In this document: in pieces, positions 1 to 20,456 of the stretch
How the letters are laid out: each line of letters begins with the position of its first letter
Position numbering within the stretch: the stretch's first letter is position 1
From: Cyanophora paradoxa CCMP329
Lineage: Eukaryota > Plantae > Glaucophyta
Assembly: GCA_004431415.1 (NCBI GenBank)
Contig: QPMI01000423.1
Coordinates: forward strand, 186,001 to 250,000
DNA length: 64,000 nt
Reading direction: 5' to 3'
Position numbers and translations under genes: made by a program
The notes under the pieces: model-generated
Database searches by the model: none
Told to the model about the DNA's origin: nothing
What the model saw: the letters and a program-made list of their open reading frames with translations, nothing else

Positions 1-204
1 GTAAGCAATTGTCACAGCGGATGCTGTGATACAACCGTAGAACTTGGTTTTTCAGATACCGAAGATAATGTAACGGAAGGTAGAGAGTCCCGGAGACATT
101 CGGTAGATTCCACACATTCAGAACCCGCTACAAATGGTCGCCGTTTTTCGGTAGATCAAAGCGATGATTTACGAAGGCAAGCGTTTGATCATCGCGGTAA
201 TTAA
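1..204 (+). CDS. 3' end of a viral ORF truncated by the window edge (VSNCHSGCCD...FDHRGN*)
   Basis: Frame 1 is open from base 1 to TAA at 202-204; Cys cluster followed by a polar tail. Confidence 0.5.
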   Translation, partial: VSNCHSGCCDTTVELGFSDTEDNVTEGRESRRHSVDSTHSEPATNGRRFSVDQSDDLRRQAFDHRGN

Positions 205-406
205 AATATTTGTAATAAGTATCGGAAAATGCTCGAAGAAGTCTATAATATTATTTTAGCAAAACGTCAGATTTACGCCGTTGCATCTGCGATAGAAAAA
301 CGTAGACAAGAGCTTGTCCGGTCGCCAAAAAATGACAACCCTAAAAGTATTTAAAGAAACAGCGATATTACAAACTGATAAAATATTTTCTGTGCTGAAA
401 GTAAGA

Positions 407-682
407 ATGGCTGCTATCGCCGATGATGTTAGCGTAATTGAATTCGAATTCGAAAGTGACAGCGATGAAATTGTTAACTCACCACCAAAGGTTAAACTTA
501 ATCCTAAGAGTGCCGATGGGTTAAATTATCGAATCCGTGAAGTGCTGAGACTGCGAAAGAAGTATGAGGAAGATCCCGAATACCGTGAATTCAAAAAAAA
601 GCAATCTTTGGAGAACTATTACCGTCGCAAAGAATTGGAAGGTATCCATAGTGCAAAGCGTGGACGTCCCCGCAAATACTGA
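407..682 (+). CDS. Small protein with acidic N-terminus, basic helix and C-terminal AT-hook (KRGRPRKY); putative DNA-binding protein
   Basis: In frame with ORF-track 314..682; ATG at 407 has the AAAGTAAGAATG context seen at other viral starts; RGRP AT-hook core. Confidence 0.7.
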   Translation: MAAIADDVSVIEFEFESDSDEIVNSPPKVKLNPKSADGLNYRIREVLRLRKKYEEDPEYREFKKKQSLENYYRRKELEGIHSAKRGRPRKY

Positions 683-871
683 AATGCCGCTATCGCCGCT
701 GAAACATCATTACTTATTTTTCGAGCGGCTTACCGATGATAATCGGTAATCGCGTTACAGAATCCGGTTTTTTAGCATCGAGAAAAAAAGTGTAGGGCAT
801 TTAAAGGTTAGGCGCCAAAAAATGATTAACAAGAAAAATTTTTATCTTTCTTAAAAGTAGAACGTGCCAAA

Positions 872-3259
872 ATGTTTAACTCAAAGGAACCTAACAACCT
901 CCCGATTACTCTCATTGAGAAAGTCTCACGTCCCGCTGTTAAGTATCTCATCGATAATTTCGACAATTTGAAGTATCGCCCTAATGTCGATTCTGTCGCT
1001 ACCCTTACTATGCTCAAAAAGTATATGAATAGTATTCGCCCTAATGGAACTCTCGAAGCGAAATACCACCAATGCAAGCATAACACTGGACGCTATTTTA
1101 CAAACCTTTCGCACATCAAGAACAAAAAGCCGAGCCTACAAGGAATGGCGCGCGAATTCCGCCATACTCTCGCTCGTGATAACTATTACGACATTGATAT
1201 GAAAAATGCCCATCCTTCTCTGCTTGTTCAGTATTGCAAAATGAATAGCATTGAGTGCGATTTTCTGGCTGAGTATGTAAACGGACGTGACAAAATCATA
1301 GCTAACCTTCTCAAAAAATACCCTGATATCAACCGTGGAGACATTAAAGATGCTTTCCTTTCTGTGATCAATGGGGGCGGTGGTATTGACTGTCCGGAAA
1401 TCCAAAAAGAAATGGCGTTTAAGAAAATCAAACAGGAAATCGGAGGTATTCACTCTTCTATTGCAAGCCTCGATGAAAATAGCAAGTTTTACAGCATCTG
1501 CAAGCGTAAGAAACAATTCAATGTGTTGGGATCTACCGTTAATATGCTTCTTTGCGATCTCGAAAACAAATGCCTTATGGCTCTGTGTGAGTTCTTGGAA
1601 TCTGTCAAGGTGAAAGTAGGGGTGCTGGTCTTTGATGGATGTATGGTGGAAAAGACACCTGACCTGACCATAGAGAAGCTTAATGAAATTCTTGTAGATG
1701 CTGATAAGTATATTCTCAGTTCTACGGGATACAAAATAGGCTTACTTGTGAAACCTATGGACGAAGGCTTTGGGCTTCCCGATCTCGCAACTTTGGAAGC
1801 CAACGATTTCAAAATTTGCGTTACTGATGCTCACGCTGCGACCATATTCATTGAAGAAATCATTAAGAATGATGTCGTTAATTCAGATGGTCGCTTATTT
1901 GTGAAGACTGACGAGCATCTATGGACGGATGAAAAAGCAAGGGTCGACAACATGCTTTTGAATAGATGCCTCCGATCGAATATTTACCGATCTGATGATA
2001 AGGGAATACATGCCTATACAGCCAATCACTCGGGCGCGAAGAATGTCGTGGCGTGCGCTAAGGCAATGTTTCCTAATCAAATTGGCTTTTACCTGAATAC
2101 CCTATGGGGTTCTACTCTCGGGAAAATATGCTACAAAAATGGCGTGTATGATTTCGGAACGAAGAAGCTAACACCATGGGAAAAAGTAGAAGGTGTTTAT
2201 TCAACGGTGCGAATTGAGCGCGACCTAATCGTAGATGAAAACGGCTATGTGGTTAAACCGGCTGATGAGCATATTAAGACCCTGTATGATCGGCTTCTAC
2301 ACCCAATCTTTGGAGAAGAAAACACACCTGTGGCTCTTGCTTTTACGGCAAGATCAATGGCGGGAATGATTGAAGACAAGCAATGGGCTGTATCAATGGG
2401 TGAAAGAAATTGTGGAAAGGGAGTTTACGTAAATCTGAATGAGAACACATGGGGTGATTATGTTAATACTATTAGCGGTGAATCATTCCTAATGGAAAAA
2501 ACAATTAATAACGACGAAGCTAAGAATTTGAAATGGATGAAATCATGTGAGTTTCGACGAATCACATTCACACAAGAAATGAAATTCGATGTGACAAATC
2601 CAAACATCAAGATCAACGGCGCAATGGTGAAAAAGACAGCATCCGGAGGTGATAAGCAAAATATGCGGGTTCTCTGGGCAAATGAGCAAAACATATTTTT
2701 ACAAAGTCGGCTATGGATGATCCTTAATGATATGCCCCCTGTTACACCGGCTGATACTATGGAAAATCTACTTTATTTCAAGCATCCGCACAAGTTCGTA
2801 GACCAAAAAACAATCGATGAGTTAAAGCTTCCTTTCCTCAAATTGAAATCTAACGATATCAAAACTGTGTTATTGAAAGACCCTAATATTATTCGGGCGT
2901 TTGAATGGGAAGTTTTCAATGCGTTCCAAAGCCAACCCGTCCAATTGGAAGGCAAGATAGCCGAAGATACGGAAGCTTTCCGTGAAGAAGGCGGTGATGA
3001 GCTGTTATTAATTAAAAAGAGCTTTGAATTCACAAAGAATAACAGCGACTCCCTAACATCGAAGGCTGTCGATGAAGAGTTTAAAAAACTAAAAATCAAT
3101 ATGTCCACAAGTCGAATTAAGGCACTCATGGAAAAGATGGGTGCAAAGTATGATAAGAACGCTGTAAAGGTGAGAAATTCATATTCGCGTGGTTTCAAAG
3201 GGGTGAAGCTTGTCGCTCAACAAACAAACCAATTCGAAGATGATGACATAGAAGCATAA
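872..3259 (+). CDS. TVpol (family A-like primase-polymerase) fused to D5-like superfamily 3 helicase
   Basis: GRYFT...SLQGMAREFR, motif A-like YYDIDMKNAHP, motif C-like LVFDGCMV; D5_N-like KNGVYDF; Walker A GERNCGKG. Architecture resembles Sputnik V13 and PLV primase-helicases. Confidence 0.85.
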   Translation: MFNSKEPNNLPITLIEKVSRPAVKYLIDNFDNLKYRPNVDSVATLTMLKKYMNSIRPNGTLEAKYHQCKHNTGRYFTNLSHIKNKKPSLQGMAREFRHTLARDNYYDIDMKNAHPSLLVQYCKMNSIECDFLAEYVNGRDKIIANLLKKYPDINRGDIKDAFLSVINGGGGIDCPEIQKEMAFKKIKQEIGGIHSSIASLDENSKFYSICKRKKQFNVLGSTVNMLLCDLENKCLMALCEFLESVKVKVGVLVFDGCMVEKTPDLTIEKLNEILVDADKYILSSTGYKIGLLVKPMDEGFGLPDLATLEANDFKICVTDAHAATIFIEEIIKNDVVNSDGRLFVKTDEHLWTDEKARVDNMLLNRCLRSNIYRSDDKGIHAYTANHSGAKNVVACAKAMFPNQIGFYLNTLWGSTLGKICYKNGVYDFGTKKLTPWEKVEGVYSTVRIERDLIVDENGYVVKPADEHIKTLYDRLLHPIFGEENTPVALAFTARSMAGMIEDKQWAVSMGERNCGKGVYVNLNENTWGDYVNTISGESFLMEKTINNDEAKNLKWMKSCEFRRITFTQEMKFDVTNPNIKINGAMVKKTASGGDKQNMRVLWANEQNIFLQSRLWMILNDMPPVTPADTMENLLYFKHPHKFVDQKTIDELKLPFLKLKSNDIKTVLLKDPNIIRAFEWEVFNAFQSQPVQLEGKIAEDTEAFREEGGDELLLIKKSFEFTKNNSDSLTSKAVDEEFKKLKINMSTSRIKALMEKMGAKYDKNAVKVRNSYSRGFKGVKLVAQQTNQFEDDDIEA

Positions 3260-3332
3260 TATAATGAATGATCGGAATTATTTTTACAAAGTAGCAAGTG
3301 TTTTTATTCATTTGTTACTGATTCAGTAAGAG

Positions 3333-3531
3333 TAGGCACTTTATAGGCACTTATTTATTACTATTATAGTAAGGTTAGGCACCCGTTAGGCACCTTAGGC
3401 ACCTTAGGCACCTAATTTTAATTTTCACCCACGCGAAAAAAAGTTGTGTCAAGCACAACACAACTTTTAAAATTTTAGAAAAAAGTTAAAAAAGGTGCCT
3501 AAGGTGCCTAAGGTGCCTAAAAAGTGCCTAA
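3333..3531. promoter_or_regulatory. Putative iteron-type replication origin: inverted arrays of a 9-bp repeat around an AT-rich hairpin
   Basis: TTAGGCACC at 3375, 3386, 3395, 3404 (TAGGCACT at 3333, 3344); reverse complement GGTGCCTAA at 3494, 3503, 3512 (AGTGCCTAA at 3523); 11-bp stem AAAAGTTGTGT (3439-3449) / ACACAACTTTT (3458-3468). Confidence 0.65.
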
Positions 3532-3573
3532 CGCGTTTCATTTCCGAAAAAATAATGTTCCTATAAAGCAAAG

Positions 3574-6500
3574 ATGCCCCGCCAAACTAATAGACTTATC
3601 AAAGAAAAGAAAAATGAGATTCTCGGACTGTTAGGAACCCTTTTAGCCACCGGTGAAATCACAGAAGCCGAATATGATAGAGAAGCCGCCATTTTAGATC
3701 GGAAGCCGCGACTACAACAACTTACCGATATCGCCAATGACCTTTATGATCGCATGCAAAGAATGGAAGACTTTATGGACGAAGGACAACGCTTAGGAGC
3801 GATAGAACCCGAAGTAGAAGACGGTGAGGCAATGAATCAGGCTTACTCGTGGCATTCTTACCGCGCAAGAAATCAAATAGTTGTCGATACTATCGATTAT
3901 TTGGAACGCATCGCTACTAACCTTCCACAGCGAATTAGAACGAAGTTAGAACAATTAAGAGCCGTTAAAGTCCGTCTTACATTCGTTTGTCGGTTCCTTA
4001 AAGTAAGTAATGAACGCATTTTTATTACTAAATACATTTACAGTGACTACTTTGTTATCACACGATCCCGTAATATAAATACGGAATTGCGTAAAGCTCT
4101 ACAAGAAATGCAAGAGCAAATGAAACAAGTAGATAGTTATCGTTTGGATCGCTTAGAGATCCTTAGGGTTGTTATCATGTCTTACGCACCGGTGGGTGGT
4201 TGCTATTTCGCTACTCCCGATTGGATCGCAAGAAAGAAAGCAACCGTTAACGTTAAGAATATCGACGGACAAGATTGTTTTAAATATGCTATTTTGGCTC
4301 GTCTACACCGAAAGGACATTAACCGCCATAAAAGCTATGATCCTATCCAATATCGCCGATGGCTTAATGAACTGAACTTTAATAATATCGAATTCCCGGT
4401 AGCATGCGATGCTGATGTTATCGATCGATTCGAAGAACAGAACCCGGACTTATCGGTTAATATCTACGGTGCCGATAACGAAAAGGAGTCATTCTATCCG
4501 TTACATATGTCGAGCAATCCACGTAGAAAGAATAAAATTAACCTTTTACTCATTGAAAATACGGAGGAGAATAGAGGACATTATGTAGCTATTGTGTCTC
4601 TAAGTCGCCTCCTTAAAACCACTTTCGATAAAGCATGTGATGGACGCATTTATTACTGTGAAACCTGTCTATCACGTTTCCGATCTCAGGCGAAATTAGA
4701 CCTACACATAGAAGCTAATCGGTGCATCGATTGGAGGGAAAGTAAAGGAAAATGTCCGAAACCCGATACTTACATGGAATTCGGATTAAAACACCTAAGA
4801 AAGACTGTATGGCTTCCTGTGATCTGTTACGTGAAAATCGAAGATCATTCGGTATCTGTGAGTGCAAACAAAACCAAACGGGAAATTAAAGCTGTGTCAC
4901 TGAGAGTGGTAATAGGAGAAGAAGTAGTAGCTTTTCATTTTGAGGGAGCCGATCCTTTGGGTTCGCTGTTCGCAAAACTCATAGAAATAAGACCTCATGT
5001 AGTGCAAACCCTATTTAGAAATATTCCCATGCATCCCCTCACGGAAGATCAGAAGGCGGAATATAGAACCACAAAGCATTGTTACATTTGCTTGCAACGA
5101 TTCACAGCCGAAAACTTTTCGGTTCGCGATCACTGTCACCAAACGGGTGATTATATCGGGAAAGCATGCCGAAACTGTAACCTCCATAGGCGAATCTCAA
5201 AACAAACAAAGGTAGCTATCGTGGTAGATCAAATGGACGAATGCGGACATGGGATATTCCGAAAGATTGCCCAACAAGACGATACACAACGTGTGGAAAT
5301 TTTAAGCAAAAATTTCGATCAATACCTATCGCTACAATGGGGCATGTGGAAATTCATCGATGCATCGCATTTTATGGATTTCCAAAGTGCAAATGTCGAT
5401 GATCTTATGTTTAAATTCGAAGAATTCCGTAAATTGGCGTTCTCTCAATATGGATTAGATCCATGTCATTACGTTAGCGCTCCCGGTCTATCATGGGACG
5501 CTATGTTAAAACATACAAAGGCAAAGATTGCACTTATCGATGATGTCGACAAATACGAATTTATTGAAAGAGCAATAAGGGGTGGATTCGCCACGATGCC
5601 CACACGATATGCAAAGGTCGAAAATCCCGATGATCATATAGTTTTATTGGACGCAAATAATCTTTATGGTTATGCACTCAGCCAACCTTTACCTATTGGT
5701 GATTATCGATGGGAAGAAACCACAGAGGCACTTAAAGAAGTAGAAGGACGAAACGCATTTATTGAGGTCGATTTAGAATATCCTATTTCCCTCGAAGATC
5801 ATTATGATTTTCCACTTATTGTGAATAAAGAAGTGATCACGACAGATATGTTAGGTGAATACCAACAAAACCTATTATATATGACAGGTGAAAAGTTAAC
5901 CAAAGATCCACGACTTACAGCAACATTTACACCAAAGACTAACTATGTCATATCACAACCTCTACTTATCTATCTCGTTAAAAAGGGTGTAGTCATAAAG
6001 GCGATTCATAAGGTGATCTCATTCGCTACTTCCTCTTTCATGAAATCTTACATAGCTCTAAATACAAGACTACGACACGAATCAGGGAATAGATTCGAAA
6101 GCGACTTTTTTAAACTCATGAATAATGCGATATATGGAAAGTGCTTAGAATCTTGTCGGGGTCGCTCTTCTGTAAAGATCGCCAATAGTGAGAAACTATG
6201 TAAGAAATATGCCGCAAGTCCACTTATTAAAGCAACCAATGTATTAAACGAAAATGCCGTAGCGTTTGAAATGTATTCGAAACACGTAAACTTAGATAAA
6301 CCCGTAGCTATTGGTGCTTTCGTTTTGGATTTCGCGAAGTTACATAATTATCAATTCTTTTATGAGGTGGTAAAAAAGAAATGGGAAACGGCTAAGTTAC
6401 TATTCCACGATACCGATTCGTTCTGCCTACTACTGAAAACCGATAATCTAAATGCGGACATGAAAGCCATCGGTGAACACCTCGATAGGAGTAATTATAA

Positions 6501-6855
6501 CCGCGATCATCCATTATATAGTTTGTCGAATCGATTGACTCCGGGGAAGTATAAAAACGAATTCCCAAATGCAAAGATCTTAGAATATGTGGGTTTGAGA
6601 TCGAAACTTTATGCTTTCAGAACTGAAACCTATGAAAAAATAAAAATGTCCGGCACAGCATCGAAAGAAGTCCATTTCGACGATTTTAAAAAGTGTCTAT
6701 TCGAAGGCATCACCAAAACAGTAACAGTAAGAAACAAGCGACGACAAGACCACAGCCTATATGATTTGGAGAGTAGAAGGGTGGCGTTAAACCAAATCGA
6801 TAGCAAAAGGAAGATATCAAACGACGGCATTCACAGTGTCCCATTTGGTCTCTAA
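3574..6855 (+). CDS. Polinton-type protein-primed family B DNA polymerase (vOTU-like protease region, C2H2 finger, EndoVII-like insert, degenerate 3'-5' exonuclease)
   Basis: DCFKYAIL...GHYVAI; CETC..F......LH; CYIC...RDHCHQTG...CRNCN; LDPCHYVSAPGLSWDAMLK; IRGG; DANNLY; KLMNNAIYGK; HDTDS; GLRSKLY. Confidence 0.95.
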   Translation: MPRQTNRLIKEKKNEILGLLGTLLATGEITEAEYDREAAILDRKPRLQQLTDIANDLYDRMQRMEDFMDEGQRLGAIEPEVEDGEAMNQAYSWHSYRARNQIVVDTIDYLERIATNLPQRIRTKLEQLRAVKVRLTFVCRFLKVSNERIFITKYIYSDYFVITRSRNINTELRKALQEMQEQMKQVDSYRLDRLEILRVVIMSYAPVGGCYFATPDWIARKKATVNVKNIDGQDCFKYAILARLHRKDINRHKSYDPIQYRRWLNELNFNNIEFPVACDADVIDRFEEQNPDLSVNIYGADNEKESFYPLHMSSNPRRKNKINLLLIENTEENRGHYVAIVSLSRLLKTTFDKACDGRIYYCETCLSRFRSQAKLDLHIEANRCIDWRESKGKCPKPDTYMEFGLKHLRKTVWLPVICYVKIEDHSVSVSANKTKREIKAVSLRVVIGEEVVAFHFEGADPLGSLFAKLIEIRPHVVQTLFRNIPMHPLTEDQKAEYRTTKHCYICLQRFTAENFSVRDHCHQTGDYIGKACRNCNLHRRISKQTKVAIVVDQMDECGHGIFRKIAQQDDTQRVEILSKNFDQYLSLQWGMWKFIDASHFMDFQSANVDDLMFKFEEFRKLAFSQYGLDPCHYVSAPGLSWDAMLKHTKAKIALIDDVDKYEFIERAIRGGFATMPTRYAKVENPDDHIVLLDANNLYGYALSQPLPIGDYRWEETTEALKEVEGRNAFIEVDLEYPISLEDHYDFPLIVNKEVITTDMLGEYQQNLLYMTGEKLTKDPRLTATFTPKTNYVISQPLLIYLVKKGVVIKAIHKVISFATSSFMKSYIALNTRLRHESGNRFESDFFKLMNNAIYGKCLESCRGRSSVKIANSEKLCKKYAASPLIKATNVLNENAVAFEMYSKHVNLDKPVAIGAFVLDFAKLHNYQFFYEVVKKKWETAKLLFHDTDSFCLLLKTDNLNADMKAIGEHLDRSNYNRDHPLYSLSNRLTPGKYKNEFPNAKILEYVGLRSKLYAFRTETYEKIKMSGTASKEVHFDDFKKCLFEGITKTVTVRNKRRQDHSLYDLESRRVALNQIDSKRKISNDGIHSVPFGL

Positions 6856-7013
6856 TACACTGTATCTATACTTCTCTTTTTATTTTTTCGGTCTCCTAAA
6901 AGTAATATACCTCGGAGGATGTGTAATAACCATATACATTTTTGAAATTGATCTTTTGGGTCAATTTCATAGAAATTAGGTATGGGGTTCTCTTTCCATA
7001 CTGGGTCGTCCAT
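6852..7013 (-). CDS. Small hypothetical protein (53 aa, MDDPVW...)
   Basis: Stop overlaps the pPolB stop; ATG is 26 bp from the divergent ATG at 7040, matching the packing of this element. Confidence 0.4.
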   Translation of the reverse strand: MDDPVWKENPIPNFYEIDPKDQFQKCIWLLHILRGILLLGDRKNKKRSIDTVY

Positions 7014-7039
7014 TATAAATATATCAGAGATTAAGTAGG

Positions 7040-7189
7040 ATGCGCACCATCTTAGCGAAAGTATTCCCATATGAGCTTGTCGATATCATAATGATCCATT
7101 ACCATAAGACGTGTCCTAATTGCTTTGATACTCGTATAATCACCAAAGGTAAATGTGGAAAAATTCTTATTTGTTTGTCTAAACTTTAA
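7040..7189 (+). CDS. Small Cys-containing protein (49 aa, MRTILAKVFPYELVDIIM...CPNC...), not in the ORF track
   Basis: TAAGTAGGATG start context; stop overlaps the stop of the convergent 7186..7458 gene. Confidence 0.45.
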   Translation: MRTILAKVFPYELVDIIMIHYHKTCPNCFDTRIITKGKCGKILICLSKL

Positions 7190-7458
7190 TCAAAATACAA
7201 CATAATCGGTTTCTCCTCTATGACTATTCCCCATGTTGTCCTTTTTCTGTATGCGTGAGAGTGTTTCTTAGAACACTGTCGGCAACCTGACCCCTTAATA
7301 TGGTTAAATCCGTAGGTCTGAAAGACTTTATTACATTGTAAACATCTAACAGTTACCTTTTCTTGCGCTTTCTTATAAACAGTGTCGGTATAATCAAATT
7401 TATCCTTACCATGGACTGACATAGCGGTATCTATAAACTTTCTTGTTTTTTCATCCAT
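7186..7458 (-). CDS. Zinc-ribbon protein (DUF723-like repeat of viral homing-endonuclease-associated proteins), no nuclease domain
   Basis: FI..A..VHGKDKFDY....Y.....KV.VRC..C...F.....NH.KGSGC..C pattern. Confidence 0.7.
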   Translation of the reverse strand: MDEKTRKFIDTAMSVHGKDKFDYTDTVYKKAQEKVTVRCLQCNKVFQTYGFNHIKGSGCRQCSKKHSHAYRKRTTWGIVIEEKPIMLYFD

Positions 7459-7478
7459 TCCCTATATATACCTTAGAT

Positions 7479-8324
7479 TTATGGTTGTGGATCGCTACCG
7501 CCGACGGGATTGTATAGATTGGTGTTAAGATATTGACCGAATCGGTTAGCTGTTGCGATTGCGTCGTTTCTTTCGGCATACATAATAACTCTATAATTTC
7601 CAAGTTGTGTAGCTCTTATTATAAATTGGTTATCTTGTGTATCTAAAAGAGGTATTGAGTGAAACGCCTGACCAAAATTATCTATGGGGATAATATGTAT
7701 CGTAAGGCGTGGTCTTGCTCCATCGGTTCTTCTACATAATGCGTAAATGTCCTCTGGTATCGTGTCTCTATATCTATAATGATTTCCCAACGGTTCTAAA
7801 ACATCAGCTACCGCTGTTTGTAAACTAATAACGATTGTATAAATCTTAATAAGGTAAGGCTCATTCATACCTGGGCAATATGTCCTAATTCGTGTGTTCT
7901 CATCATCAGGATTTGGTTGATCATTCACCAATAGAGGCGCTCCAATGATACCACCGACTCGTAGACCATCACCAATGTAAGCGCCACCCGATCTACATTT
8001 AATCGCTCCGTTTCTCGATTCATAAGCAAAGTTAGTAACCTTGTTATCGTCATTGTAACTATCGGGATCTCCATAAAAAGCGTTAAAGTTTGCATTTGTA
8101 ACAAGAAGTTTCGTAGTTTTCACAATGCCGTTATTTTTGTCACATCTTAACTCTTTCAGTCGCAATTTATGCGTATCACCAAAAGTATTAAGAGTAGGTG
8201 CAAGTTCGGTAGATTCGAGACCATCGACATTATCGATAACAGCATGTTGTAATACGTGATTAGCCGGCGCGGCTAATGAAAGTTGCGCTGTTAAGATACG
8301 CTCAGGTGGAGCGGGTGCCGCCAT
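7479..8324 (-). CDS. Hypothetical fibre/minor virion-like protein, paralog of 8344..9247
   Basis: Shares KELRxDKNxGxVKTTxLLVTNANFNA, RSGGAxIGxGxRVxG and RIRxYxP with its neighbour; C-terminal part loosely resembles phage fibre C-terminal domains. Confidence 0.7.
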   Translation of the reverse strand: MAAPAPPERILTAQLSLAAPANHVLQHAVIDNVDGLESTELAPTLNTFGDTHKLRLKELRCDKNNGIVKTTKLLVTNANFNAFYGDPDSYNDDNKVTNFAYESRNGAIKCRSGGAYIGDGLRVGGIIGAPLLVNDQPNPDDENTRIRTYCPGMNEPYLIKIYTIVISLQTAVADVLEPLGNHYRYRDTIPEDIYALCRRTDGARPRLTIHIIPIDNFGQAFHSIPLLDTQDNQFIIRATQLGNYRVIMYAERNDAIATANRFGQYLNTNLYNPVGGSDPQP

Positions 8325-8343
8325 TTAATATATTAAAACATAA

Positions 8344-9247: not shown

Positions 9248-9283
9248 TGCTTCTTTTACTAAGAAGGAAAGAAAAATAAACCA

Positions 9284-9592
9284 TTAAGCCAATGTGATAA
9301 GATTCGATCCAAGAGATTGGTAAGCGGTTGTTAGACTTTGGATATTGGATGTGATCGCTTTAAGGTTAGAATCACATTCGGCGTAACGTGCTACGGGATC
9401 ACCATAAGCCGATTGCGCAAGGACATTAACCAAGAGGGTTTTATATTCATGAACAACTGGGGACAGTTTGTTAGTTTGCTGAATTGTTTTTTCGACATTT
9501 TGTAGCGCGGCTACAAGTTTGATAGTATCGAATGCAAGAGCGACAGGCTCAGAAGTAGTAGAAGGAGATCCACCAAGTGGATAGGTCGCCAT
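9284..9592 (-). CDS. Hypothetical helical protein (102 aa)
   Basis: Clean ORF starting 3 bp after the fibre stop; amphipathic helical pattern; no family recognised. Confidence 0.65.
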   Translation of the reverse strand: MATYPLGGSPSTTSEPVALAFDTIKLVAALQNVEKTIQQTNKLSPVVHEYKTLLVNVLAQSAYGDPVARYAECDSNLKAITSNIQSLTTAYQSLGSNLITLA

Positions 9593-9595
9593 TTA

Positions 9596-12500: not shown

Positions 12501-15500
12501 TCTGCATCGGTTGCATAACTGCTTAAATCCGCGGACGTGAGATATCCTTTATTGGTTAGGTAATCATCTGTAACGACACCTGAAAGGGTTGTATTGTGTA
12601 AGTTTTTCGCCGCCATTCTCTGATTGACTTCTAAGGCGCCTCCTGTTGTCGTTTTAATCCACGCAATCTCACATTTTCCGTGATCATCTGTGGGTTGTCC
12701 CACAACAGGAAGATAGTTAACAACTTTCTCCCTTGTGAATACTATTTTAGGTCTTGCTCCATCATATGCGCTTTGATCTGTTACATTTACTTGTATCGCT
12801 GCTGAAAAATCCGCTACTTGTCCTGTTTCCCCTGGGTGATAATTCGTAACATAGATACTGGGGAAAGTATCGTTTACTCCTACATTGAAATCGCCACTAT
12901 ACACTCCATTTACGATTGGATCCCTGGGTAATCTTACTGCAAGAGTTCCCACCATCGGTGTGCCTTCTTGACCTGTAAACGACCCATTGAGACTAACGTA
13001 ATGATCATTCAAAAATAGCCTTTCAGGTGTATTAATTGATTGGTAAAGTGTGACTCCATTAAAAACGTTTCCGATTGCATTCAATTGTGCAAAAACGGGC
13101 TGTTCGTCTATTTCGCTCCATGGGTGCCTGTGGTTGCTATTGGTAATCTGTGAATAATCATGAGTGTGTGGATCAGGTGGGAAGGTTAATGGCGGATTTG
13201 TGATATGCTCCCATAAATGAGTATGGGCGAAATCTGTGATTTGCGATTTTGTGTGAGTGTGTGCGAAATCTGTTATTTGATCTTTTGTGTGAGTGTGGGC
13301 GAAATCTGTTATTTGATCTTTTGTGTGAGTGTGGGCGAAATCTGTTATATCTGCTTTTGTGTGTTTTTGGTTTGCTAACCAATCTAAGACAACATTAGAA
13401 GTAGGATGATGCGGTAGGTTTGCTTCAATATTCACAGTTAAGTAGTCGACTATTAAATTACTTCCATAAATATTACTTGCCCATATATTACTTGCCCATA
13501 GATTACTGGTATATAAGTTACTTGCCCATATGTTACTTGCTGAAATGTTACTGGTATAAATGTTATTTGTAACTGTAAGGTTTGCGTCGTTTTTGATAAC
13601 AAATAATGAAAGAATATTAGTAAGTTCGCCTTCATCAATGTATCCTTGATGTTCTAAATAATCTTCTGTTACCACTCTCGAAATATCTTCATTGTGTATG
13701 TTTTTGGCGCTTGCTCTTTGATTGATTTCTAATAAACCTTCACCAACACCACCGTTATAATTTGTTTTTATCCATGCTACCTCGCATCTTTCGTAACTAT
13801 CACGATCTCCTATAAAAGTTTTTGGTAAAAGACGCTGCCGACTAAATATTAATTTCGGTCTCGATTGGTCAAAATCGCTAACATCTGTTACATTAATTTG
13901 TATTGCTGCGTCTTTGTTGTCGCAACTATTTGGATCTAATGGAATTGATGGTATCGGAGGTAATACTTCTGTCATCTCGATATCCTCAGGGTAGTAGTTT
14001 GTTAAATAAATTCCGGGTTTTGTCTCAAACAAACCAAAATTACCACTTATTGGTAAAATCCCTTCTCTTCTGGGTGGTCTAATGTATAATTCGGCTTCCA
14101 TTCCTGTGCCTGCTTCTATTCCCATACGATTAAGGTAGTGGTCATTTAATTGTAATCTTTCTTCTATTTCTATATTTTGGTAGAGACTTACACCATGTTG
14201 AAAATCTGTTAATACATTTCCTGCGGATGCAAAAGTAGGTTGCTGATCGATTTCGTCCCAATTATGCCTGTGGTCTTCTGGTGGAAATTCAGTAGGTATG
14301 TTATCTAAATCGCCCCAATCGTGCCTATGCTCTGTGGGCGGAAATCTTTCCGGTTTGTTTAGAATGTCTTCCCATTCGTGTTCGTGGGGATCTGGTGGGA
14401 ATGTGTCGGGTTTATTAATAATATCCCTCCAATCTACGGTAAAATCGAAAAATCCCGGCTGTAATCCATCTGGTAATAACTCTTCATCTGGTATATGTGG
14501 CTGTTCATAATCTATGTTAGGTGGATCTAATCCATGTGGTAATAGTTGTTCGTCAAATGGTTGATAACGATCATATAACATATGGTTAGGATCAAATCCA
14601 TCCGGCAATTCTTCCACGTCTTCACATTCTTTATGTTCGAGAGGTATAACATTAATATCCGGTGCTAAGAGTTCCTCAGCGGGCGGTTTGTAATCTTTAA
14701 AAACTGGTTTATTATAAACTTTTTCCCAACTAACTAAATGTTGCCCAAACGCTACCGTTTCATCCGCTGTGTATTCTCTACCGGGTTGTTTCTTTGGTGT
14801 GAGATCTGGTGGATCCCATGGTAGCGGAAATGGAACCGGAGTAGGTCCGTAATGCTCTATGATTTCTCTTATGGTCTTTTCACTAACAAGTTTCTCACCA
14901 TTTGCATAAACATTACTACCATGAATATTTCGCCATTGTCGGGTTCTAATACCAAGGTCTTTGGTGTTTGTTTTCAAAGGTAAAAGGTGGCGATCCATTT
15001 CGACAAGATCGGGATGTAAATGTATAGCTACTGGTTGACTGGGACTATTGTCGACTGTGATCGAATCCTTTTCTTTGGAAGTATCCGGTGGAAGACTGAA
15101 ACCAAACAGTGCATTAGTGTTTGAATTGGTGACAATGTCTTGAGGGTAAACATTATTGGTGTGGCGAATCTGATTCTCTTCACCATGCGGGGCTACTTGT
15201 AATATCTGGGGAATTTGTGTAATCGCGTTTGATCCTTCATTATAGATTCTCAAACCGCTACGATGAACTCCCTTCTCATCCTGGACATTAAAAACCAAAC
15301 GTCCGCTATCATAACGTGTGGGAATATCGGGATGCGTTCCACTTGCTTTAAGTTTCCGTGGTCTCCTTCTTGTTGCCTTGATCTCCGCAACCGCGTTTTT
15401 TTTTACATTCCCCAAACTAAAAGCTATACTTACATCTTCTTTCTCTGGGTCTGTTTGATTCACCGTTAAAGCATGAATTCTGGGATGCGTCTTACTGGGT

Positions 15501-15625
15501 TTATCGGCGCTCTGATCAATTGACGCCGACCCTTTAATGGTGATATTATCAAAGTTTACATGTTTAGTGTTTCCTTTACCACTACCTGTTATGGTTTGTA
15601 AATTTGCTGGATAATTGAAACTCAT
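9596..15625 (-). CDS. Giant modular tail-fibre/spike protein with C-terminal peptidase S74 intramolecular chaperone
   Basis: C-terminal SDRRYKTDI...LGLIAQDVQ...PEVV...YTGLIPVLIEAVKEL; His-rich phage-tail repeats (HxHxWxxIxxxPxxFPP, HTHTKDQITDFA); SNxWA pentapeptides; internally duplicated domains. Confidence 0.88.
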   Translation of the reverse strand: MSFNYPANLQTITGSGKGNTKHVNFDNITIKGSASIDQSADKPSKTHPRIHALTVNQTDPEKEDVSIAFSLGNVKKNAVAEIKATRRRPRKLKASGTHPDIPTRYDSGRLVFNVQDEKGVHRSGLRIYNEGSNAITQIPQILQVAPHGEENQIRHTNNVYPQDIVTNSNTNALFGFSLPPDTSKEKDSITVDNSPSQPVAIHLHPDLVEMDRHLLPLKTNTKDLGIRTRQWRNIHGSNVYANGEKLVSEKTIREIIEHYGPTPVPFPLPWDPPDLTPKKQPGREYTADETVAFGQHLVSWEKVYNKPVFKDYKPPAEELLAPDINVIPLEHKECEDVEELPDGFDPNHMLYDRYQPFDEQLLPHGLDPPNIDYEQPHIPDEELLPDGLQPGFFDFTVDWRDIINKPDTFPPDPHEHEWEDILNKPERFPPTEHRHDWGDLDNIPTEFPPEDHRHNWDEIDQQPTFASAGNVLTDFQHGVSLYQNIEIEERLQLNDHYLNRMGIEAGTGMEAELYIRPPRREGILPISGNFGLFETKPGIYLTNYYPEDIEMTEVLPPIPSIPLDPNSCDNKDAAIQINVTDVSDFDQSRPKLIFSRQRLLPKTFIGDRDSYERCEVAWIKTNYNGGVGEGLLEINQRASAKNIHNEDISRVVTEDYLEHQGYIDEGELTNILSLFVIKNDANLTVTNNIYTSNISASNIWASNLYTSNLWASNIWASNIYGSNLIVDYLTVNIEANLPHHPTSNVVLDWLANQKHTKADITDFAHTHTKDQITDFAHTHTKDQITDFAHTHTKSQITDFAHTHLWEHITNPPLTFPPDPHTHDYSQITNSNHRHPWSEIDEQPVFAQLNAIGNVFNGVTLYQSINTPERLFLNDHYVSLNGSFTGQEGTPMVGTLAVRLPRDPIVNGVYSGDFNVGVNDTFPSIYVTNYHPGETGQVADFSAAIQVNVTDQSAYDGARPKIVFTREKVVNYLPVVGQPTDDHGKCEIAWIKTTTGGALEVNQRMAAKNLHNTTLSGVVTDDYLTNKGYLTSADLSSYATDAELAAALAGYLPLTGGTVTGTVNATTLQIGGNTIPKGYEFDQLDTVSTDRSANNWTVNWTGHRTGQTGCYTTPENDADVTGCWMRWTKPEGMKSFYIEHLLWLNCRYFDIYGETVNGHQHFLRRVNNYQAIQNTPVQDGTYSGVVFTSINCDFYKKVVVKGVKGRIYFTGVFGWSRQRATDNDVGLIHYDNIAFNPVGKYSDFDVVSGWNSAGVSFQSGAWTTGWKPTTDNPVEGFHSNQTDDASGDGYMQCAVPAGMKTCHIQYLCWSNARYFDIYGYRNSRWNYIMRVNTYQNVQNTADTAWHSSLLWTSVFCGNFSYIGIFAKKGRVHIGMLGWTKEVGRTAPANGMISWDNVYSKPALITAADLPGTATWITNTWLKSTDNIERIWFGNGNTTYIRGYGNSDGVSIEFRNSADGAILKSYNNGNLWVNNTLTVPTISATTIGATTIDVATLKRNGYDVPKCYGFDDTVAGGAYHSSGGTWTVGYGTPWDPGYNYGSYVFNSEADDTASTTTWIQYTIPTAMVNGTAFLTHLPWTVCRYFEIWGVRSNGAIVFITRVNNYHPHNGDSDGHHNGLNNVPIFLAGRFTHIRIYPRVGRVHIMGIGFTHDRAHSSSYGGHTGYISWDNIYSKPNLLTPSLVGNITGFDTWSGTGSGGLSFSGSWVSGWTATNDNPVDGFYSSVSDETTSSDWAQIEKPANMKTCHVQYLCWTNTRYFDIGGYRSGRWFHIMRVNTYQAIANYGTSDYHDGLAWASFACDNFSHVRFVASKGRCYIGMVGWTKEKGRTTPANGTISWDNVFSKPLSATWFSGNWINSGDNYPRMYFGTGSTTYIRGHATTVVEFRNASDVHVAFINDDGYMWVRNYLGQGSDRRYKTDIKKITGALSAIEKLEGVSYKRIGSEKNGTRLGLIAQDVQQIIPEVVCASKEDGYLALEYTGLIPVLIEAVKELSKKCKGLQDQIDQIKNVTV
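13200..13560 (-). repeat. Coding tandem repeats inside the fibre gene: 36-bp (HTHTKDQITDFA) and 15-bp (SNIWA) units
   Basis: Repeated aaatctgttatttgatcttttgtgtgagtgtgggcg (~13,200-13,370) and ttacttgcccata-type units (~13,460-13,560). Confidence 0.85.
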
Positions 15626-15674
15626 CCCTGGTTACTCTAATAATAGAGATTTATTAAATTTCAATTAAGTAAAG

Positions 15675-17210
15675 ATGCCTTTAAGGGTTGTTTTATCTTT
15701 GTCTGGCGGGGGCGCACGTGGTATTATCATAACAAGGTTGTTAAAAGAAATAGAAACAAGAACAGGTAAACGCGTTATTGATTTGGTCGATCTTGTAAGT
15801 GGAACGTCCACAGGCGGTATTATTGCTATTGGTCTCAATGTGAAAAATCCCGAATTTCCCGATGAACCTAAATTAACGGCTACCGATCTTCATAATACTT
15901 ACCTATATCATCTTCCTCTCATCTTTGCGAATCCACGGAATATCATAGAGAATGCACTTTTCAATACTAAATATGATGTATCACCATTAGAAACCGCTAT
16001 TTTCTCTGTGACTGGGGAAGCTCTCATAAAAGATTCATTAAAAGATGTGGTTATTACGACATTCGACACTGTAAGCATGAAACCAATTTTTATAGCAAAC
16101 GATAACGATTATAAGACTATACCAAGTAAAATAGCGGCACGTTCTACTTCCGCTGCTCCTACATATTTTGCTCCTGTCGATTACAACGGAATGTGTTTAA
16201 TAGATGGTGCGATATCAGGTAACAATAACCCAAGTGTTTGTGGTTATAGTCACGCAAAAAAGATATATGATAACGACGACGATATTATAGTTATTAGCAT
16301 ATCATGTGGTGAGGTAAATGAAACAGACGCACCAAATGTGGGTTACTCTTACGAAAGTGTGAATACCTGGGGAATTCTATCATGGATTGCTTCCACATCA
16401 GGGAGTCCATTAATTAATATGCTAATGGCTGCAAGTGAATTATCGGCTCTTGAAAAGATGCATGAGTTTTTACCATATAATGATGACCAAGGATATGCGC
16501 GATACTACCGTATCTCTGTGCCGCTTCCGAAAGATATCTTAAACTCCCTCGATGATACTTCTAAGATTCCGGACATGATAGCGGCGACTGAAACGTATAT
16601 AGAAGCAAACGACGCCATGATAAATCGACTATGTGAGTTACTTGTAACAAATTATGAGATTAAGAACCCTGTCAGATCCTATGTATCATCCACTCTCAAT
16701 AACATACCTCCTATCGATGCTAATTGGTATCTTCTGTCAGATAATGCGTTTACCGCTTCTTCTGCAAAATTCGGAAAAGAGGCATTTAAAGCCCGCCCAT
16801 CATTAACTGAATGGGAAGCGAATGCATCCGCCATAAACGGAATATGGGAAACGCCAACTGAATATTTGCAAATAGCCTTACCATATACATATGAAATCGC
16901 TTCTATAATTGCATATGGATCAGGTATAACGACTGCATTTATTAAGACTTTTAATGTTGCGACATCGCAAGATGGTTTAACATGGTCATTTATCAAATAT
17001 GAGGGTGTAAATAGAATGTTTGTATGTGAAAATATAAATAATGCACATAATTCTGGGGATGTTGCATATGCTCTGGGGTTCCCGCTTTCAATTAACGATG
17101 TATTTTATATAGGTTATCCTCTGAGAATTCGATATATTCGAATTTATCCGCTGGTATATATAAATGCTCCGACTATGAGAGTCGATGTAACGGGCGCATT
17201 TATACGGTAG
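15675..17210 (+). CDS. Patatin-like phospholipase fused to a C-terminal discoidin (F5/8 type C)-like domain
   Basis: GGGARG, GTSTG, SAAPTYF, DGA motifs; C-terminus EYLQIAL...SQDGLTW...RYIRIYPL...MRVDVTG. Confidence 0.9.
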   Translation: MPLRVVLSLSGGGARGIIITRLLKEIETRTGKRVIDLVDLVSGTSTGGIIAIGLNVKNPEFPDEPKLTATDLHNTYLYHLPLIFANPRNIIENALFNTKYDVSPLETAIFSVTGEALIKDSLKDVVITTFDTVSMKPIFIANDNDYKTIPSKIAARSTSAAPTYFAPVDYNGMCLIDGAISGNNNPSVCGYSHAKKIYDNDDDIIVISISCGEVNETDAPNVGYSYESVNTWGILSWIASTSGSPLINMLMAASELSALEKMHEFLPYNDDQGYARYYRISVPLPKDILNSLDDTSKIPDMIAATETYIEANDAMINRLCELLVTNYEIKNPVRSYVSSTLNNIPPIDANWYLLSDNAFTASSAKFGKEAFKARPSLTEWEANASAINGIWETPTEYLQIALPYTYEIASIIAYGSGITTAFIKTFNVATSQDGLTWSFIKYEGVNRMFVCENINNAHNSGDVAYALGFPLSINDVFYIGYPLRIRYIRIYPLVYINAPTMRVDVTGAFIR

Positions 17211-17403
17211 AAAAAAGAGGGAATTTTTTCCGATTTTTTGATTATATATGTATATGTATATATAATAATATTAATTAATATTATTTATTATTTTTTTTTT
17301 CCAAACATTTTTTTCTCGGTCAAACGGCATTACGGAGGTTTTGGTATATATAGTCTAAATATGTCGTGTATATATGGTATATATATGTCGTGGGAATTTC
17401 GGA

Positions 17404-17511
17404 CATTTCAGGACAATGGGGGGATGATTTCAGAACGATGGGGGGGTGATTTCAGAACGATGGGGGGGTGATTTCAGAACGATGGGGGGGTGATTTCAGA
17501 ACGATGGGGGG
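17404..17511 (+). repeat. 22-bp G-tract tandem repeat (TGATTTCAGAACGATGGGGGGG x4 plus one degenerate copy)
   Basis: Copies at 17425, 17447, 17469 and 17491, in the intergenic gap between the convergent patatin and integrase genes. Confidence 0.9.
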
Positions 17512-17637
17512 AAGAAACCCAAAGAAACCAAAAATTCCAAGAAATTCATACAAACTGCTATAACTCTTCACCAACTTATCGCCTTTCAAAACCGCGACCA
17601 TCGCCGGAATCCTCTTTGCATCCTCTACACATCTATG

Positions 17638-19038
17638 CTACTTTCGGGAACTGGATCGTAGATTTACCCGGGTTTGTGGTGCTGTATATGTCTCTTTTGA
17701 GGTCTGAAAATCCGTATACCATCTGTGGCTGTTGACCTCTGATAGCTTATGGGTTCCTGCTATGACCAACTTCTTAATTTCACGCTCCGCCTTCCCTTTC
17801 TTCTTAGTTCTGGCTTGCGTTAGCGGTTCTTCTGGGACATCATCCGCTTTTTCGATGCCTTCCTTTCGTATCGCCGAATCTATCCGGGCTTCTTCTTTGG
17901 CTTGTTCTAATGCATCACCTGTGGGCGCCTCATGATACTCTACACCTTTGATAGGTAACAGTTCGTGGAAAGCAAACCTTCCATCGACCATTTCACCATT
18001 AGGATTTCGTAACCGAAACTTAAAACCCTCCCTACCCTCGACAGTATAAACGATTCGCGACCAATTGACACCCTGTTTAGCGAATGGGTTCTTTTCTATT
18101 CTCACCCGCACAAACATACCCTTTTGAATACCGTCTAAGTAAGCCATCGACTTCTTAAACTTCTCATCTTCTAAACCTATGATCTCTCTATAATGCTCAT
18201 CTGTGGTTTCTGCGGGTTTTCTCTTAGTCGCTGAATGAACAGTATGGTTATAATTATACTCAATGTCACCCAATACATCGAAGAATCGCGCCGTGTTGTT
18301 TGCTATGCAATAGTTCGTAATAAGCCGCTTAATCTGCTTGTTAAAAGCTTCTATTCTACCCTGACTACGATGATCTGCAACATCGCTAATCTGATGATCG
18401 ATGAACTTCTTAGCAAGGTAATTAGTAAACATAGTATTAGTAAATTCGCTACCGCTATCACTTTGGACGCGTGCGATTGGTCGTGGCACTCTCTTTTGTA
18501 GCTGTTCGAATGCGGCAAGAGTCGTAATAGCGCTCTTGTCTCTCATCGGAATTATATAACCTGTTCTAAGCGTTGATTCCATAGCCGACATAAACGTATC
18601 GTATCCGTCATTTTGCTTCTTATAAGATGGGAAAAACAGAAGATCAATAACATAGGTATCGAGAGGCTGCCTAATTGGTATCATCGGGTCTCTCTTTCTT
18701 GAAAGGGTAGGCGCGTTAATCTGAACGACTTCCTGTTTATCATACCATTCCCTCATCTTCTTATAGTCTTCATCTGGTAGTTCTTTTCTCATAGCTCCGA
18801 AACCCTTATAACCGGTGCGCGGATCGTAAAACTTCTTAGCTATCTTAGATTCTTTTGTTACAGTATCAGTAGGCAATGCCTCCGGGATCAGTTCTTTAAC
18901 TATCTCAGACTTCTTTAAAATTCGTGTGTTCTTTTCCTCCACAGGAATGGTTATAGGTAGCATGTTACCCTGATCTTCTTTCATGCTCTTCTTTACGATC
19001 TTAGGAATGGGTCTTAATCCTATTAGTGATGACGGCAT
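17638..19038 (-). CDS. Retroviral-like (rve, DDE) integrase of Polinton type
   Basis: FYDP..GY, YVIDLLF (D), VQSDSGSEF (D), GRIEAFNKQIK (E), YNHTVHSAT. Start placed at MPSS (19038) from its TAAGGTAAAGATG context and to avoid overlap with the divergent gene. Confidence 0.92.
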   Translation of the reverse strand: MPSSLIGLRPIPKIVKKSMKEDQGNMLPITIPVEEKNTRILKKSEIVKELIPEALPTDTVTKESKIAKKFYDPRTGYKGFGAMRKELPDEDYKKMREWYDKQEVVQINAPTLSRKRDPMIPIRQPLDTYVIDLLFFPSYKKQNDGYDTFMSAMESTLRTGYIIPMRDKSAITTLAAFEQLQKRVPRPIARVQSDSGSEFTNTMFTNYLAKKFIDHQISDVADHRSQGRIEAFNKQIKRLITNYCIANNTARFFDVLGDIEYNYNHTVHSATKRKPAETTDEHYREIIGLEDEKFKKSMAYLDGIQKGMFVRVRIEKNPFAKQGVNWSRIVYTVEGREGFKFRLRNPNGEMVDGRFAFHELLPIKGVEYHEAPTGDALEQAKEEARIDSAIRKEGIEKADDVPEEPLTQARTKKKGKAEREIKKLVIAGTHKLSEVNSHRWYTDFQTSKETYTAPQTRVNLRSSSRK

Positions 19039-19082
19039 CTTTACCTTATTTCCGTAATTTAAATTTTCTATATAATTCATAA

Positions 19083-19484
19083 ATGAACCATCGGGGCTTC
19101 CATGTAATGTTAGATTACAAGTTTTCGAATCCACTAATTACGGGAGTGGACAACTTAGAGACCACAACGAAATGGTTAATGCACTTTTTACAAGATATTA
19201 TACAAGAACAAGGTATACGAGTAGTCCACAAGCATTACGAGATTTTCGATGGTGGTCTTTCACCTCCGGGTTTTACTTTGGTTCTTTTATTAGATGAAAG
19301 TCACTGCACCGCACACTGTTACTCAAACGAGGGCATGTTAGCCATCGATATATTTAGTTGCGGAAGGGACGCGGAGCGAAAGACATGTAATATATCATGT
19401 TTAATAGAAGAGAGGATAATAGGTATCTTTGGTGGATCACCGCAAACGGAGAGACATAAAGTATCGAGATTTCCGACACGGTAA
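19083..19484 (+). CDS. speH: S-adenosylmethionine decarboxylase proenzyme (short bacterial/archaeal class 1B type) or related pyruvoyl decarboxylase
   Basis: GFHVMLDY, GFTLVLLLDE-SH self-cleavage motif, HCY...AIDIFSCG. Confidence 0.85.
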   Translation: MNHRGFHVMLDYKFSNPLITGVDNLETTTKWLMHFLQDIIQEQGIRVVHKHYEIFDGGLSPPGFTLVLLLDESHCTAHCYSNEGMLAIDIFSCGRDAERKTCNISCLIEERIIGIFGGSPQTERHKVSRFPTR

Positions 19485-19533
19485 TAAATGGTAAAAGAAG
19501 ATGTAACAGGTTAATTAATTGTTTTTCAGTGTG

Positions 19534-19950
19534 GTGTTACAGGTGTTACAGGTCTATCCCAAAGTTCCAAGCCGCCGACCTCCTCCTAGGGGAAAGTTTG
19601 GGATGAACCTGTAACACCTGTAACACATACCATTTTCAGTAAGAACCCATTAAAATAACATAATATCAGTCATAAAATACTATAAGTAATCATAATAATA
19701 ATACGTTATCTTTATTGTATTATACGCTCCGCGCTCCATACAGCACATTGTAGATGGTTACGTTGTTACAGGTGTTACAGGTCTATCCCAAAGTTCCAAA
19801 CCGCCGACCTCCTCCTAGGGGAAAGTTTGGGATGAACCTGTAACACCTGTAACACATAGGAAATACCATTATAATAACAGAAGATCTATTTAGAATACTA
19901 ACTTATCTTTCTTATAATACACGCTCCGCGCTCCATACAGCACATTGTAG
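19534..19950. repeat. Two direct copies of a ~93-bp hairpin built from TGTTACAGG 9-mers, each followed by a shared ~50-bp tail
   Basis: 19534-19626 (20-bp perfect stem GTGTTACAGGTGTTACAGGT / ACCTGTAACACCTGTAACAC) and 19764-19855; shared ACGCTCCGCGCTCCATACAGCACATTGTAG downstream of each. Confidence 0.9.
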
Positions 19951-20145
19951 CTGTTTACAACGGCGCCATATGCGCTCCATATCATCGTCGCATTATATCC
20001 AAAAGAACATTTTATTATTTTTCGACGGAATTCCGTTAGAATTTCACACAAATATTTCATTATTTTATTTATAATTTTATACAATTTTTCATTAAATGCA
20101 TACTCATATTATTTCCATATCATTATACACGATAATGCGTAATAT

Positions 20146-20444
20146 CACACATAGAGAAAGCCCGCGTTTTATCAGGAGGCGTGATATAATTTATCTAAGT
20201 TTAAAATCCACCTCAAATACAAATGATTACGAGAGATAGAGGTAAAATACATCGGAGATACGAATAAATTAAGTTTCAGTAAGGTTTTGGATAGTAATAT
20301 ATATGAAATACGCACATAAAAGACAAGAATAAAGGATAAAATACACATAAATTATCGTAAAATATGCAAGAAATATAGGTAAAATATAAACAAAATATAA
20401 TTAAACTTAGCCGAGGGATAAAACGCGGGCTTTCTCTATGTGTG
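20146..20444. repeat. 28-bp perfect inverted repeat at the right end of the viral element
   Basis: CACACATAGAGAAAGCCCGCGTTTTATC (20146-20173) and its reverse complement (20417-20444). Confidence 0.9.
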
Positions 20445-20456
20445 TGAAGCACTGTG

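Follow-up and report, generated by a model that had tools for sequence, protein, structure and literature searches.

How does an integrated DNA virus come to carry two replicases, and which of them belongs to every copy of its family? This question is raised by a 64,000-nucleotide stretch of the genome of the glaucophyte Cyanophora paradoxa CCMP329 (contig QPMI01000423.1 of assembly GCA_004431415.1, positions 186,001 to 250,000, forward strand), hereafter called the window, whose first letter is position 1 of all coordinates given here. Bases 1 to ~20,456 of the window are an AT-rich viral segment (GC ~0.40) that ends abruptly in a GC-rich host repeat. We read this segment as 20.45 kb from the right side of a polinton-like DNA virus (PLV) that has integrated into the host genome and whose left part lies outside the window. 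It encodes a PolB of the protein-primed type (pPolB) and, beside it, TVpol, a PolA-type domain fused to a superfamily 3 (SF3) helicase. The account that we favor, and consider probable, is that of an integrated PLV whose pPolB has lost proofreading and stands next to TVpol and an inverted repeat array, the latter two likely forming a swappable replication cassette that some copies of the family hold and others do not.

The sequence-only reading of this stretch had proposed an endogenous polinton-like virus encoding TVpol, pPolB, a phage-type fibre, a patatin-discoidin protein, an rve integrase and an S-adenosylmethionine decarboxylase (AdoMetDC), and Pfam, PHROG and alignments bear out that identification. 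Its description of an AT-rich, intron-free segment with a sharp junction to GC-rich host repeat also holds. GC content is 0.36-0.45 in all 1-kb bins of positions 1-21,000 and 0.45-0.84 past 21,000, and 12 open reading frames (ORFs) make up 87% of positions 1-20,456 with no signs of introns. The segment has the features by which PLVs are recognized, namely an intron-free insertion of at least 20.45 kb (in the 15-40 kb class), a distinct GC content of 0.40 versus 0.6-0.8, and replicases and an integrase of its own. The switch from AT-rich to GC-rich DNA falls at 20,453-20,456, in register within a host repeat unit that recurs in the window, and the intact genes would fit a young insertion.

The protein-primed polymerase and its exonuclease

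The pPolB gene (3574-6855, plus strand; 1093 aa) was identified by alignment and fold search. With domain labels that follow Krupovic et al. 2024 (PMC11161782), the protein consists of an N-terminal region with a Cys/His pair of vOTU type, an EndoVII insert, an exonuclease and the polymerase motifs. Polymerase motifs A/B/C and KxY, the EndoVII insert and the N-terminal Cys/His pair are all kept; the exonuclease is inactivated and ~95 aa shorter, with the ExoI aspartate and ExoII lost. For comparison we used relatives from 25 IMG/VR loci, 24 of which were scored, one with a fragmented ORF being dropped. The segment from FxDS to FExFR, which carries ExoIII, measures 21 aa in the window enzyme, whereas each of the 24 relatives that could be scored has 113-134 aa there. 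ExoII is kept in all 24, and the ExoI DxE in all 23 relatives that cover ExoI.

Since a 701-nt contig of the higher-depth class (run X15) spans ExoI with 10 differences and no gaps, the exonuclease loss is likely a family-wide trait, common to the family's copies rather than damage to the window copy. It is also likely independent of the loss in mavirus, because the nearest relatives are intact and the mavirus polymerase comes no higher than 27th among the fold matches, with 10% identity. The closest folds are those of bidna/adinto/MELD and phi29 polymerases, and the nearest relatives are environmental elements at 30-39% identity. A search of a 5.8-billion-sequence set with pPolB returned just 2 distant matches. 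Relatives of the rve integrase adjoin pPolB in 11 of the 25 IMG/VR loci. In loci L001-L008, this pPolB clade adjoins genes that we take to be capsid-like and that seem to differ between loci, for which reason the clade cannot assign the element to a lineage. Loss of the exonuclease has been described in mavirus and in pPolB-S1H fusions, in each case with the gain of a helicase (Krupovic et al. 2024, PMC11161782).

In three DNA runs, short variant contigs map to the element by the thousands, a sign that it belongs to a multi-copy family; 20 listed runs of one organism contain 44-50% of the sampled words from positions 12,000-21,500. Between the window and other copies, 19 of 37 listed coding differences are synonymous versus a fraction of 0.22 expected at random, the 37 being the best-supported 40 of about 1,800 variants minus 3 in host DNA, and the expectation ignoring transition bias. 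This lends weak support to purifying selection on the element's genes. No RNA run is listed as containing the element, and a presumed-RNA run yielded 9 short diverged pieces on it; neither is informative on expression.

The destroyed exonuclease, together with a branch three times the median length, could also mean that pPolB is a relic being lost and TVpol the working replicase, so that we would be seeing replicase replacement half-way. Acquisition of PolA by pPolB elements has indeed been described (Barth, Ha and Aylward 2026, bioRxiv 10.64898/2026.10.13.758929). However, the 1093-aa frame is open and retains motifs A/B/C, KxY and the Cys/His pair, pPolB belongs to the higher-depth part of the family, 4 of its 6 listed differences are synonymous, and pPolB is usually coupled to DDE integrases according to the same preprint. 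We therefore consider a relic pPolB improbable.

TVpol, its depth and the adjoining repeat arrays

TVpol (872-3259, plus strand; 795 aa) was recognized from homologs and motifs, with PHROG primase matches and no sequence match in the PDB. It has 84 homologs, 12 of them full-length at 30-36% identity with conserved DxxNxHP, VFDG and Walker-A GxRxCGKG, and its relatives were taken from 79 IMG/VR loci. Contig depth in three DNA runs is 44-188 for TVpol versus 133-722 for pPolB, with pPolB/TVpol ratios of 3.7, 3.3 and 4.0 in runs X1, X15 and X2, respectively; contig depth is not copy number here, and TVpol copies less than 85% alike escape mapping. Given that the TVpol part lies at three- to four-fold lower depth than pPolB in all three runs, TVpol is likely an exchangeable cassette, or the occupant of a variable slot, in some family copies only. 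The earlier view of two polymerases as a trait of the lineage is hence not supported in that form, as TVpol is probably not fixed. As a side observation, the best-scoring TVpol relative (L010:10001-12310) lies within a 234-kb contig of GC 0.59, and five further relatives (L020, L063, L071, L072 and L074) lie on contigs of giant-virus metagenome-assembled genomes, which is compatible with movement of the TVpol gene into large viruses.

In runs X1 and X15, a contig that differs from the window by 0.5-0.6% extends from TVpol through the adjoining repeat array (array A) and stops at 3552, the start of pPolB being 22 bases farther on. TVpol and array A therefore adjoin pPolB-side DNA in X1 and X15, and the assembly graph branches there. 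The sharp depth step and the contig end at 3552 are also what two elements, tandem or nested, would produce if positions 1 to ~3,550 were a separate TVpol-type element abutting or recombined into a pPolB/rve element. Tandem and nested polisuviruses have been described (bioRxiv 10.64898/2026.10.13.758929), and in environmental loci TVpol and the clade of the window pPolB do not occur together: with flanks of up to 10 kb, the TVpol profile matches 0 of the 25 pPolB loci and the pPolB profile just 2 short ORFs across the 79 TVpol loci. Two elements nonetheless seem unlikely to us, because the terminal 320 bp of the element have no second copy near 3,550 or anywhere else in the window, GC is 0.41 to the left of ~3,550 and 0.40 to the right, the genes on both sides run in the same direction, and just ~40 bp lie between array A and the pPolB start.

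The two contigs also bear on whether the stretch is an assembly mosaic, in which collapsed copies of a large family were joined, so that no single molecule would have the gene set or the host junction. Such artefacts have been described for these elements (PMC10120064), the family is high-copy with many variants, and no listed piece spans the stretch. Yet the contigs from X1 and X15 link TVpol with array A as far as 3552 at the small difference given above, the junction is clean and in register inside a host repeat unit, and the long ORFs are intact, all of which leaves a mosaic with very little probability in our estimate.

Array A (3327-3532) consists of repeats with a 9-bp period, followed by an AT-rich spacer and, beyond it, inverted copies; based on a repeat search and on environmental counterparts, we predict that it is the TVpol origin. 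Two array-A-like motifs also occur at 793-815. Similar arrays are found at most 500 bp downstream of 11 of the 71 scorable TVpol genes (79 loci) versus 9 of 640 control windows, which are mostly coding DNA so that the contrast is inflated; by eye, 9 of the 11 calls are clear, 1 is loose and 1 is false. An iteron origin had been suggested from the sequence of the window, and the arrays after environmental TVpol genes give independent support to that candidate. Arrays of this kind act as origins for primase-helicases in P4-type replicons. In our literature searches, with subscription journals mostly outside their coverage, neither iterons at TVpol genes nor this exonuclease loss came up. Nine TVpol loci (L025, L046, L057, L066, L068, L069, L074, L075 and L076) have a 7-9 bp repeat of their own downstream of TVpol, in which two opposed repeat clusters flank an AT-rich spacer of ~90-120 bp.

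A second array, array B (19534-19858), was found by the same type of search. It comprises two palindromic units of 95 bp, almost the same in sequence, each with inverted pairs of a 9-bp repeat that differs from the one in array A. Array B falls in the high-depth part of the family and may be a second origin, for another helicase.

We propose the following model for the element. The DDE integrase would have inserted a linear genome by its terminal repeats into the host repeat. After reactivation, pPolB would start from the genome ends, primed through its own terminal-protein domain, while an SF3 helicase unwinds ahead of it, as has been proposed for mavirus with its exonuclease loss and SF3 helicase. 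In the window copy, TVpol would occupy the helicase slot to the left of pPolB; it would be loaded at array A and could in addition start internal synthesis. In other copies, this slot likely holds another gene or a more diverged one, for whose product array B is possibly the origin. We predict that the genes for capsid, penton and ATPase are situated to the left of the window. The fibres and the patatin-discoidin protein would serve attachment and membrane entry, and the AdoMetDC homolog may raise the polyamine supply.

Several points weigh against the favored account, among them the limits given above for the depth ratios, the array controls and the listed variants. The pPolB branch has a length of 2.0 versus a median of 0.71, which is also compatible with decay, and the pPolB tree leaves the window enzyme unplaced, 13 of its 21 inner branches being open. 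At many sites, the window copy disagrees with every mapped contig, and it may represent another strain or a mosaic consensus, and no contig among those listed bridges the right junction. Lastly, we infer virion formation and the limits of the element, as the capsid module and the left end are not in the window.

A broader proposition, which we offer tentatively as possible but doubtful, is that a family-wide, independent loss of proofreading in a polinton-type polymerase made this lineage of glaucophyte viruses depend on an accessory helicase, and that the slot next to pPolB takes interchangeable primase/polymerase-helicase cassettes, each with its own iteron origin. If this were true, a gene together with its origin would form a self-replicating module, which would account for the exchange of replicases among polisuviruses, and with the inverted 8-9 bp arrays the origins of TVpol replicases would have been mapped for the first time. 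Array A provides a concrete cis-sequence candidate for TVpol.

The right end, accessory genes and host flank

The terminal non-coding region (20101-20456), whose end at 20,453-20,456 is that of the element, is likely part of the right terminal inverted repeat (TIR). A perfect 28-bp inverted repeat (20146-20173 and 20417-20444) closes an AT-rich loop of ~300 nt at the terminus, and the last 311 bp of the element have a fold z of -5.9. In run X15, the contig of the terminal region has 1.8x the depth of pPolB (one contig, one run), as expected for a terminal repeat present at both ends.

Four genes between the short fibres and the terminal region have recognizable domains. A 2009-aa fibre (9596-15625, minus strand) has phage-tail repeats and a C-terminal S74 chaperone (Pfam Peptidase_S74, 2e-16; PHROG tail fibres, to 3e-27), and contains an internal duplication of ~440 aa at 10085-11743 with a spacing of 1,329 bp; the duplicated domain has no match in Pfam or the Atlas. 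A patatin phospholipase is fused to an F5/8 type C (discoidin) domain (15675-17210, plus strand; Pfam), with GGGARG, GTSTG and DGA present. The rve-type DDE integrase (17638-19080, minus strand; 480 aa) has a Pfam E-value of 7e-4, below the Pfam cut-off, a PHROG transposase match of 3e-11, and D-D-E present. Between the converging patatin and integrase genes lies a 22-bp tandem array with a G-run (17405-17511; 4.9 copies). The class-1b AdoMetDC/SpeD homolog (19083-19484, plus strand; Pfam AdoMet_dc, 2e-12) has the ES|H self-cleavage site in alignments to PDB sequences. Its substrate may be one other than S-adenosylmethionine, because viral AdoMetDC homologs have often switched to ornithine or arginine instead (Li et al. 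2023, PMC9992855).

Two paralogous genes are predicted to encode short fibres or spikes. The first (7479-8324, minus strand; 281 aa) is 35% identical to the second and has Atlas leads, under 0.9, to tail-tip clusters; its single-sequence fold is unusable (pLDDT 29). The second (8345-9247, minus strand) was delimited by paralog comparison and repeat search and retains an ORF of 259 aa at 8468-9247, its 3' end being disrupted by a 45-bp duplication with filler (8395/8467). This is the one clear lesion of the segment, as the sequence-only reading had said, but its accompanying statement that the genes are otherwise nearly intact does not stand for pPolB, whose exonuclease is dead and partly deleted. 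The N-terminal ~120 aa of the paralogs are common to three environmental proteins (P0088-P0090), two of which have unrelated C-terminal halves, which suggests a small spike family with exchangeable heads. The 281- and 259-aa proteins were also considered as pentons, a reading that found no support given their shared N-terminus, their variable C-termini, the low pLDDT of the fold model and the lack of a match to 15 ORFs of relatives that we take to be candidate structural genes.

In the viral 20.4 kb of the window, genes for a capsid, a penton, a packaging ATPase or a protease turned up neither among the ORFs nor through Pfam, PHROG or comparison with the relatives' candidate structural ORFs, so the check for these genes that the earlier reading had called for came back empty within the window. 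Searches for related elements with capsid genes likewise found none by way of TVpol (viral contigs), the integrase, the short fibres (viral and metagenome contigs) or patatin-discoidin (metagenome contigs), and an Rfam search gave no match. One may ask if the element is a capsid-less, transpoviron-like one that borrows the capsids of another virus, particularly as transpoviron-like pPolB-DDE units have been described in a glaucophyte contig (bioRxiv 10.64898/2026.10.13.758929; contig prefix via PMC10120064). We think this the least probable of the alternatives: its three genes of fibre type and its lipase are accessories of the kind that virions have, the window edge truncates the element, and an ATPase is present in 139 of 156 glaucophyte elements, which were found through their capsid genes (PMC12220804, PMC10120064).

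The remaining ORFs of the segment are small. At the left edge, the window cuts a reading frame whose 3' end lies at 1-204 (plus strand; open frame 1-201; no PHROG match). It is followed by a 116-aa basic protein (332-682, plus strand) that is possibly DNA-binding, with a weak PHROG regulator match (E 0.0096) and what we take to be a C-terminal AT-hook-like motif. A 72-aa ORF (6852-7070, minus strand) has no Pfam or PHROG match. A 90-aa protein (7186-7458, minus strand) is a zinc-finger unit as in HNH homing endonucleases, with ~70 aa matching endonuclease families of PHROG (E 3e-10) and no nuclease domain seen. A 102-aa ORF (9284-9592, minus strand) is known from the ORF call.

To the right of the element, the host GC-rich repeat (20457-21786, plus strand) has 149-bp subunits and is split by the insertion according to repeat analysis; loose contig ends at 20457 show units without interruption. 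Farther on lie a minus-strand host gene (40068-42265) with what are presumably pentatricopeptide-like repeats and, by protein similarity, a host AP-1/2 beta-adaptin gene with many short introns (43145-47158, plus strand). Among the best 120 of 2,207 matches, the best for the whole beta-adaptin gene is Gloeochaete wittrockiana, a glaucophyte (601 identities over 1,017 aligned positions); in the same set a fish protein is at the top of the HMMER ranking, and the N-terminal piece alone does not single out the glaucophyte. On this one gene, the host is likely a glaucophyte, a placement at the level of the class. Long GC-rich host satellite arrays with periods of 26, 145, 160, 172, 214 and 246 bp occupy 48971-64000.

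Comparison with known virus groups

A genome survey counted 366 capsid genes for a single glaucophyte genome, which form two clusters (272 and 94) outside named groups (Bellas et al. 2023, PMC10120064). Table S6 of Bulzu et al. 2025 (PMC12220804) tabulates 156 glaucophyte elements, with AdoMet_dc in 66, rve in 85, S74 in 37, lipases in 89, PF03175 (pPolB) in 49, TVpol-S3H in 6, D5_N in 40, COG3378 in 38, PIF1 in 34 and HNH_3 in 40; as the counts are given by group and not for single elements, they do not tell whether TVpol and pPolB occur together. The varied helicase set (D5_N, COG3378, PIF1 and TVpol-S3H) counts in favor of a cassette. AdoMet_dc is also entered in three cryptophyte rows, and this supplementary table is where AdoMetDC in PLVs appears, main-text literature having given no match. 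The same study describes S74 fibres as ubiquitous in PLVs and patatin-discoidin fusions in PLVs of Rhizaria and glaucophytes.

The window element resembles this glaucophyte set in its AdoMet_dc, rve, S74 fibre, patatin-discoidin and host, and has no tyrosine recombinase in its visible part; the exonuclease loss and the repeat arrays, on the other hand, go unmentioned in the consulted parts of PMC10120064 and PMC12220804. Most likely, then, the element belongs to a catalogued but apparently unnamed glaucophyte PLV group, its capsid gene presumably lying outside the visible part. The idea of an undescribed gene kit is accordingly not supported in the form proposed, since its components are tabulated (PMC12220804) and dual replicases have been described (bioRxiv 10.64898/2026.10.13.758929). 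As to an undescribed lineage, the glaucophyte capsid clusters are indeed apparently unnamed and outside named groups, but they were already catalogued (PMC10120064). As a virus, the element is a further member of an abundant, catalogued, uncharacterised glaucophyte group.

Polisuviruses in which a single element carries replicases of two classes, frequently delimited by repeats, have led to the proposal of mobile replication modules (Barth, Ha and Aylward 2026, bioRxiv 10.64898/2026.10.13.758929). Like the window element, they combine pPolB and a DDE integrase with an added replicase of PolA or archaeo-eukaryotic primase type, with repeats and endonuclease genes near the extra replicase. Unlike those elements, the window element has a pPolB with a dead exonuclease and an extra module marked by a depth step inside a single family; neither exonuclease nor iteron appears as a word in the main text of that preprint.

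TVpol-SF3 PLVs and Sputnik-like virophages share the full-length PolA-SF3 fusion, but theirs usually comes with tyrosine recombinases (bioRxiv 10.64898/2026.10.13.758929), whereas the window TVpol stands with rve and pPolB. Polintons/Mavericks are similar in their pPolB with an N-terminal extension, their rve integrase and a likely TIR; they differ in that the window element has lost proofreading and has TVpol, with no protease or Maverick-type capsid visible. Membership in Polintoviricetes is unlikely, because the 156 glaucophyte elements include 0 with proteases and 2 with matches to MCP-POL models (PMC12220804 Table S6, which also lists 0 tyrosine recombinases).

The window element shares with mavirus a pPolB that has lost its exonuclease, an rve integrase and an SF3 helicase (PMC11161782). 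Differences from mavirus are that the window helicase is fused to PolA rather than standing alone, that its pPolB is not of the mavirus clade but sides with EndoVII-bearing polinton-type enzymes, in which the exonuclease is intact, and that no virophage capsid or protease was seen in the window. Mavirus, too, forms AT-rich multi-copy insertions in a GC-rich host. By analogy, the replication logic of the element would be mavirus-like (exonuclease-less pPolB, SF3 helicase and rve), while a formal class assignment needs the capsid gene. What sets the element apart from these systems is a likely independent loss of proofreading and, likewise likely, a low-copy TVpol cassette with its own candidate origin.

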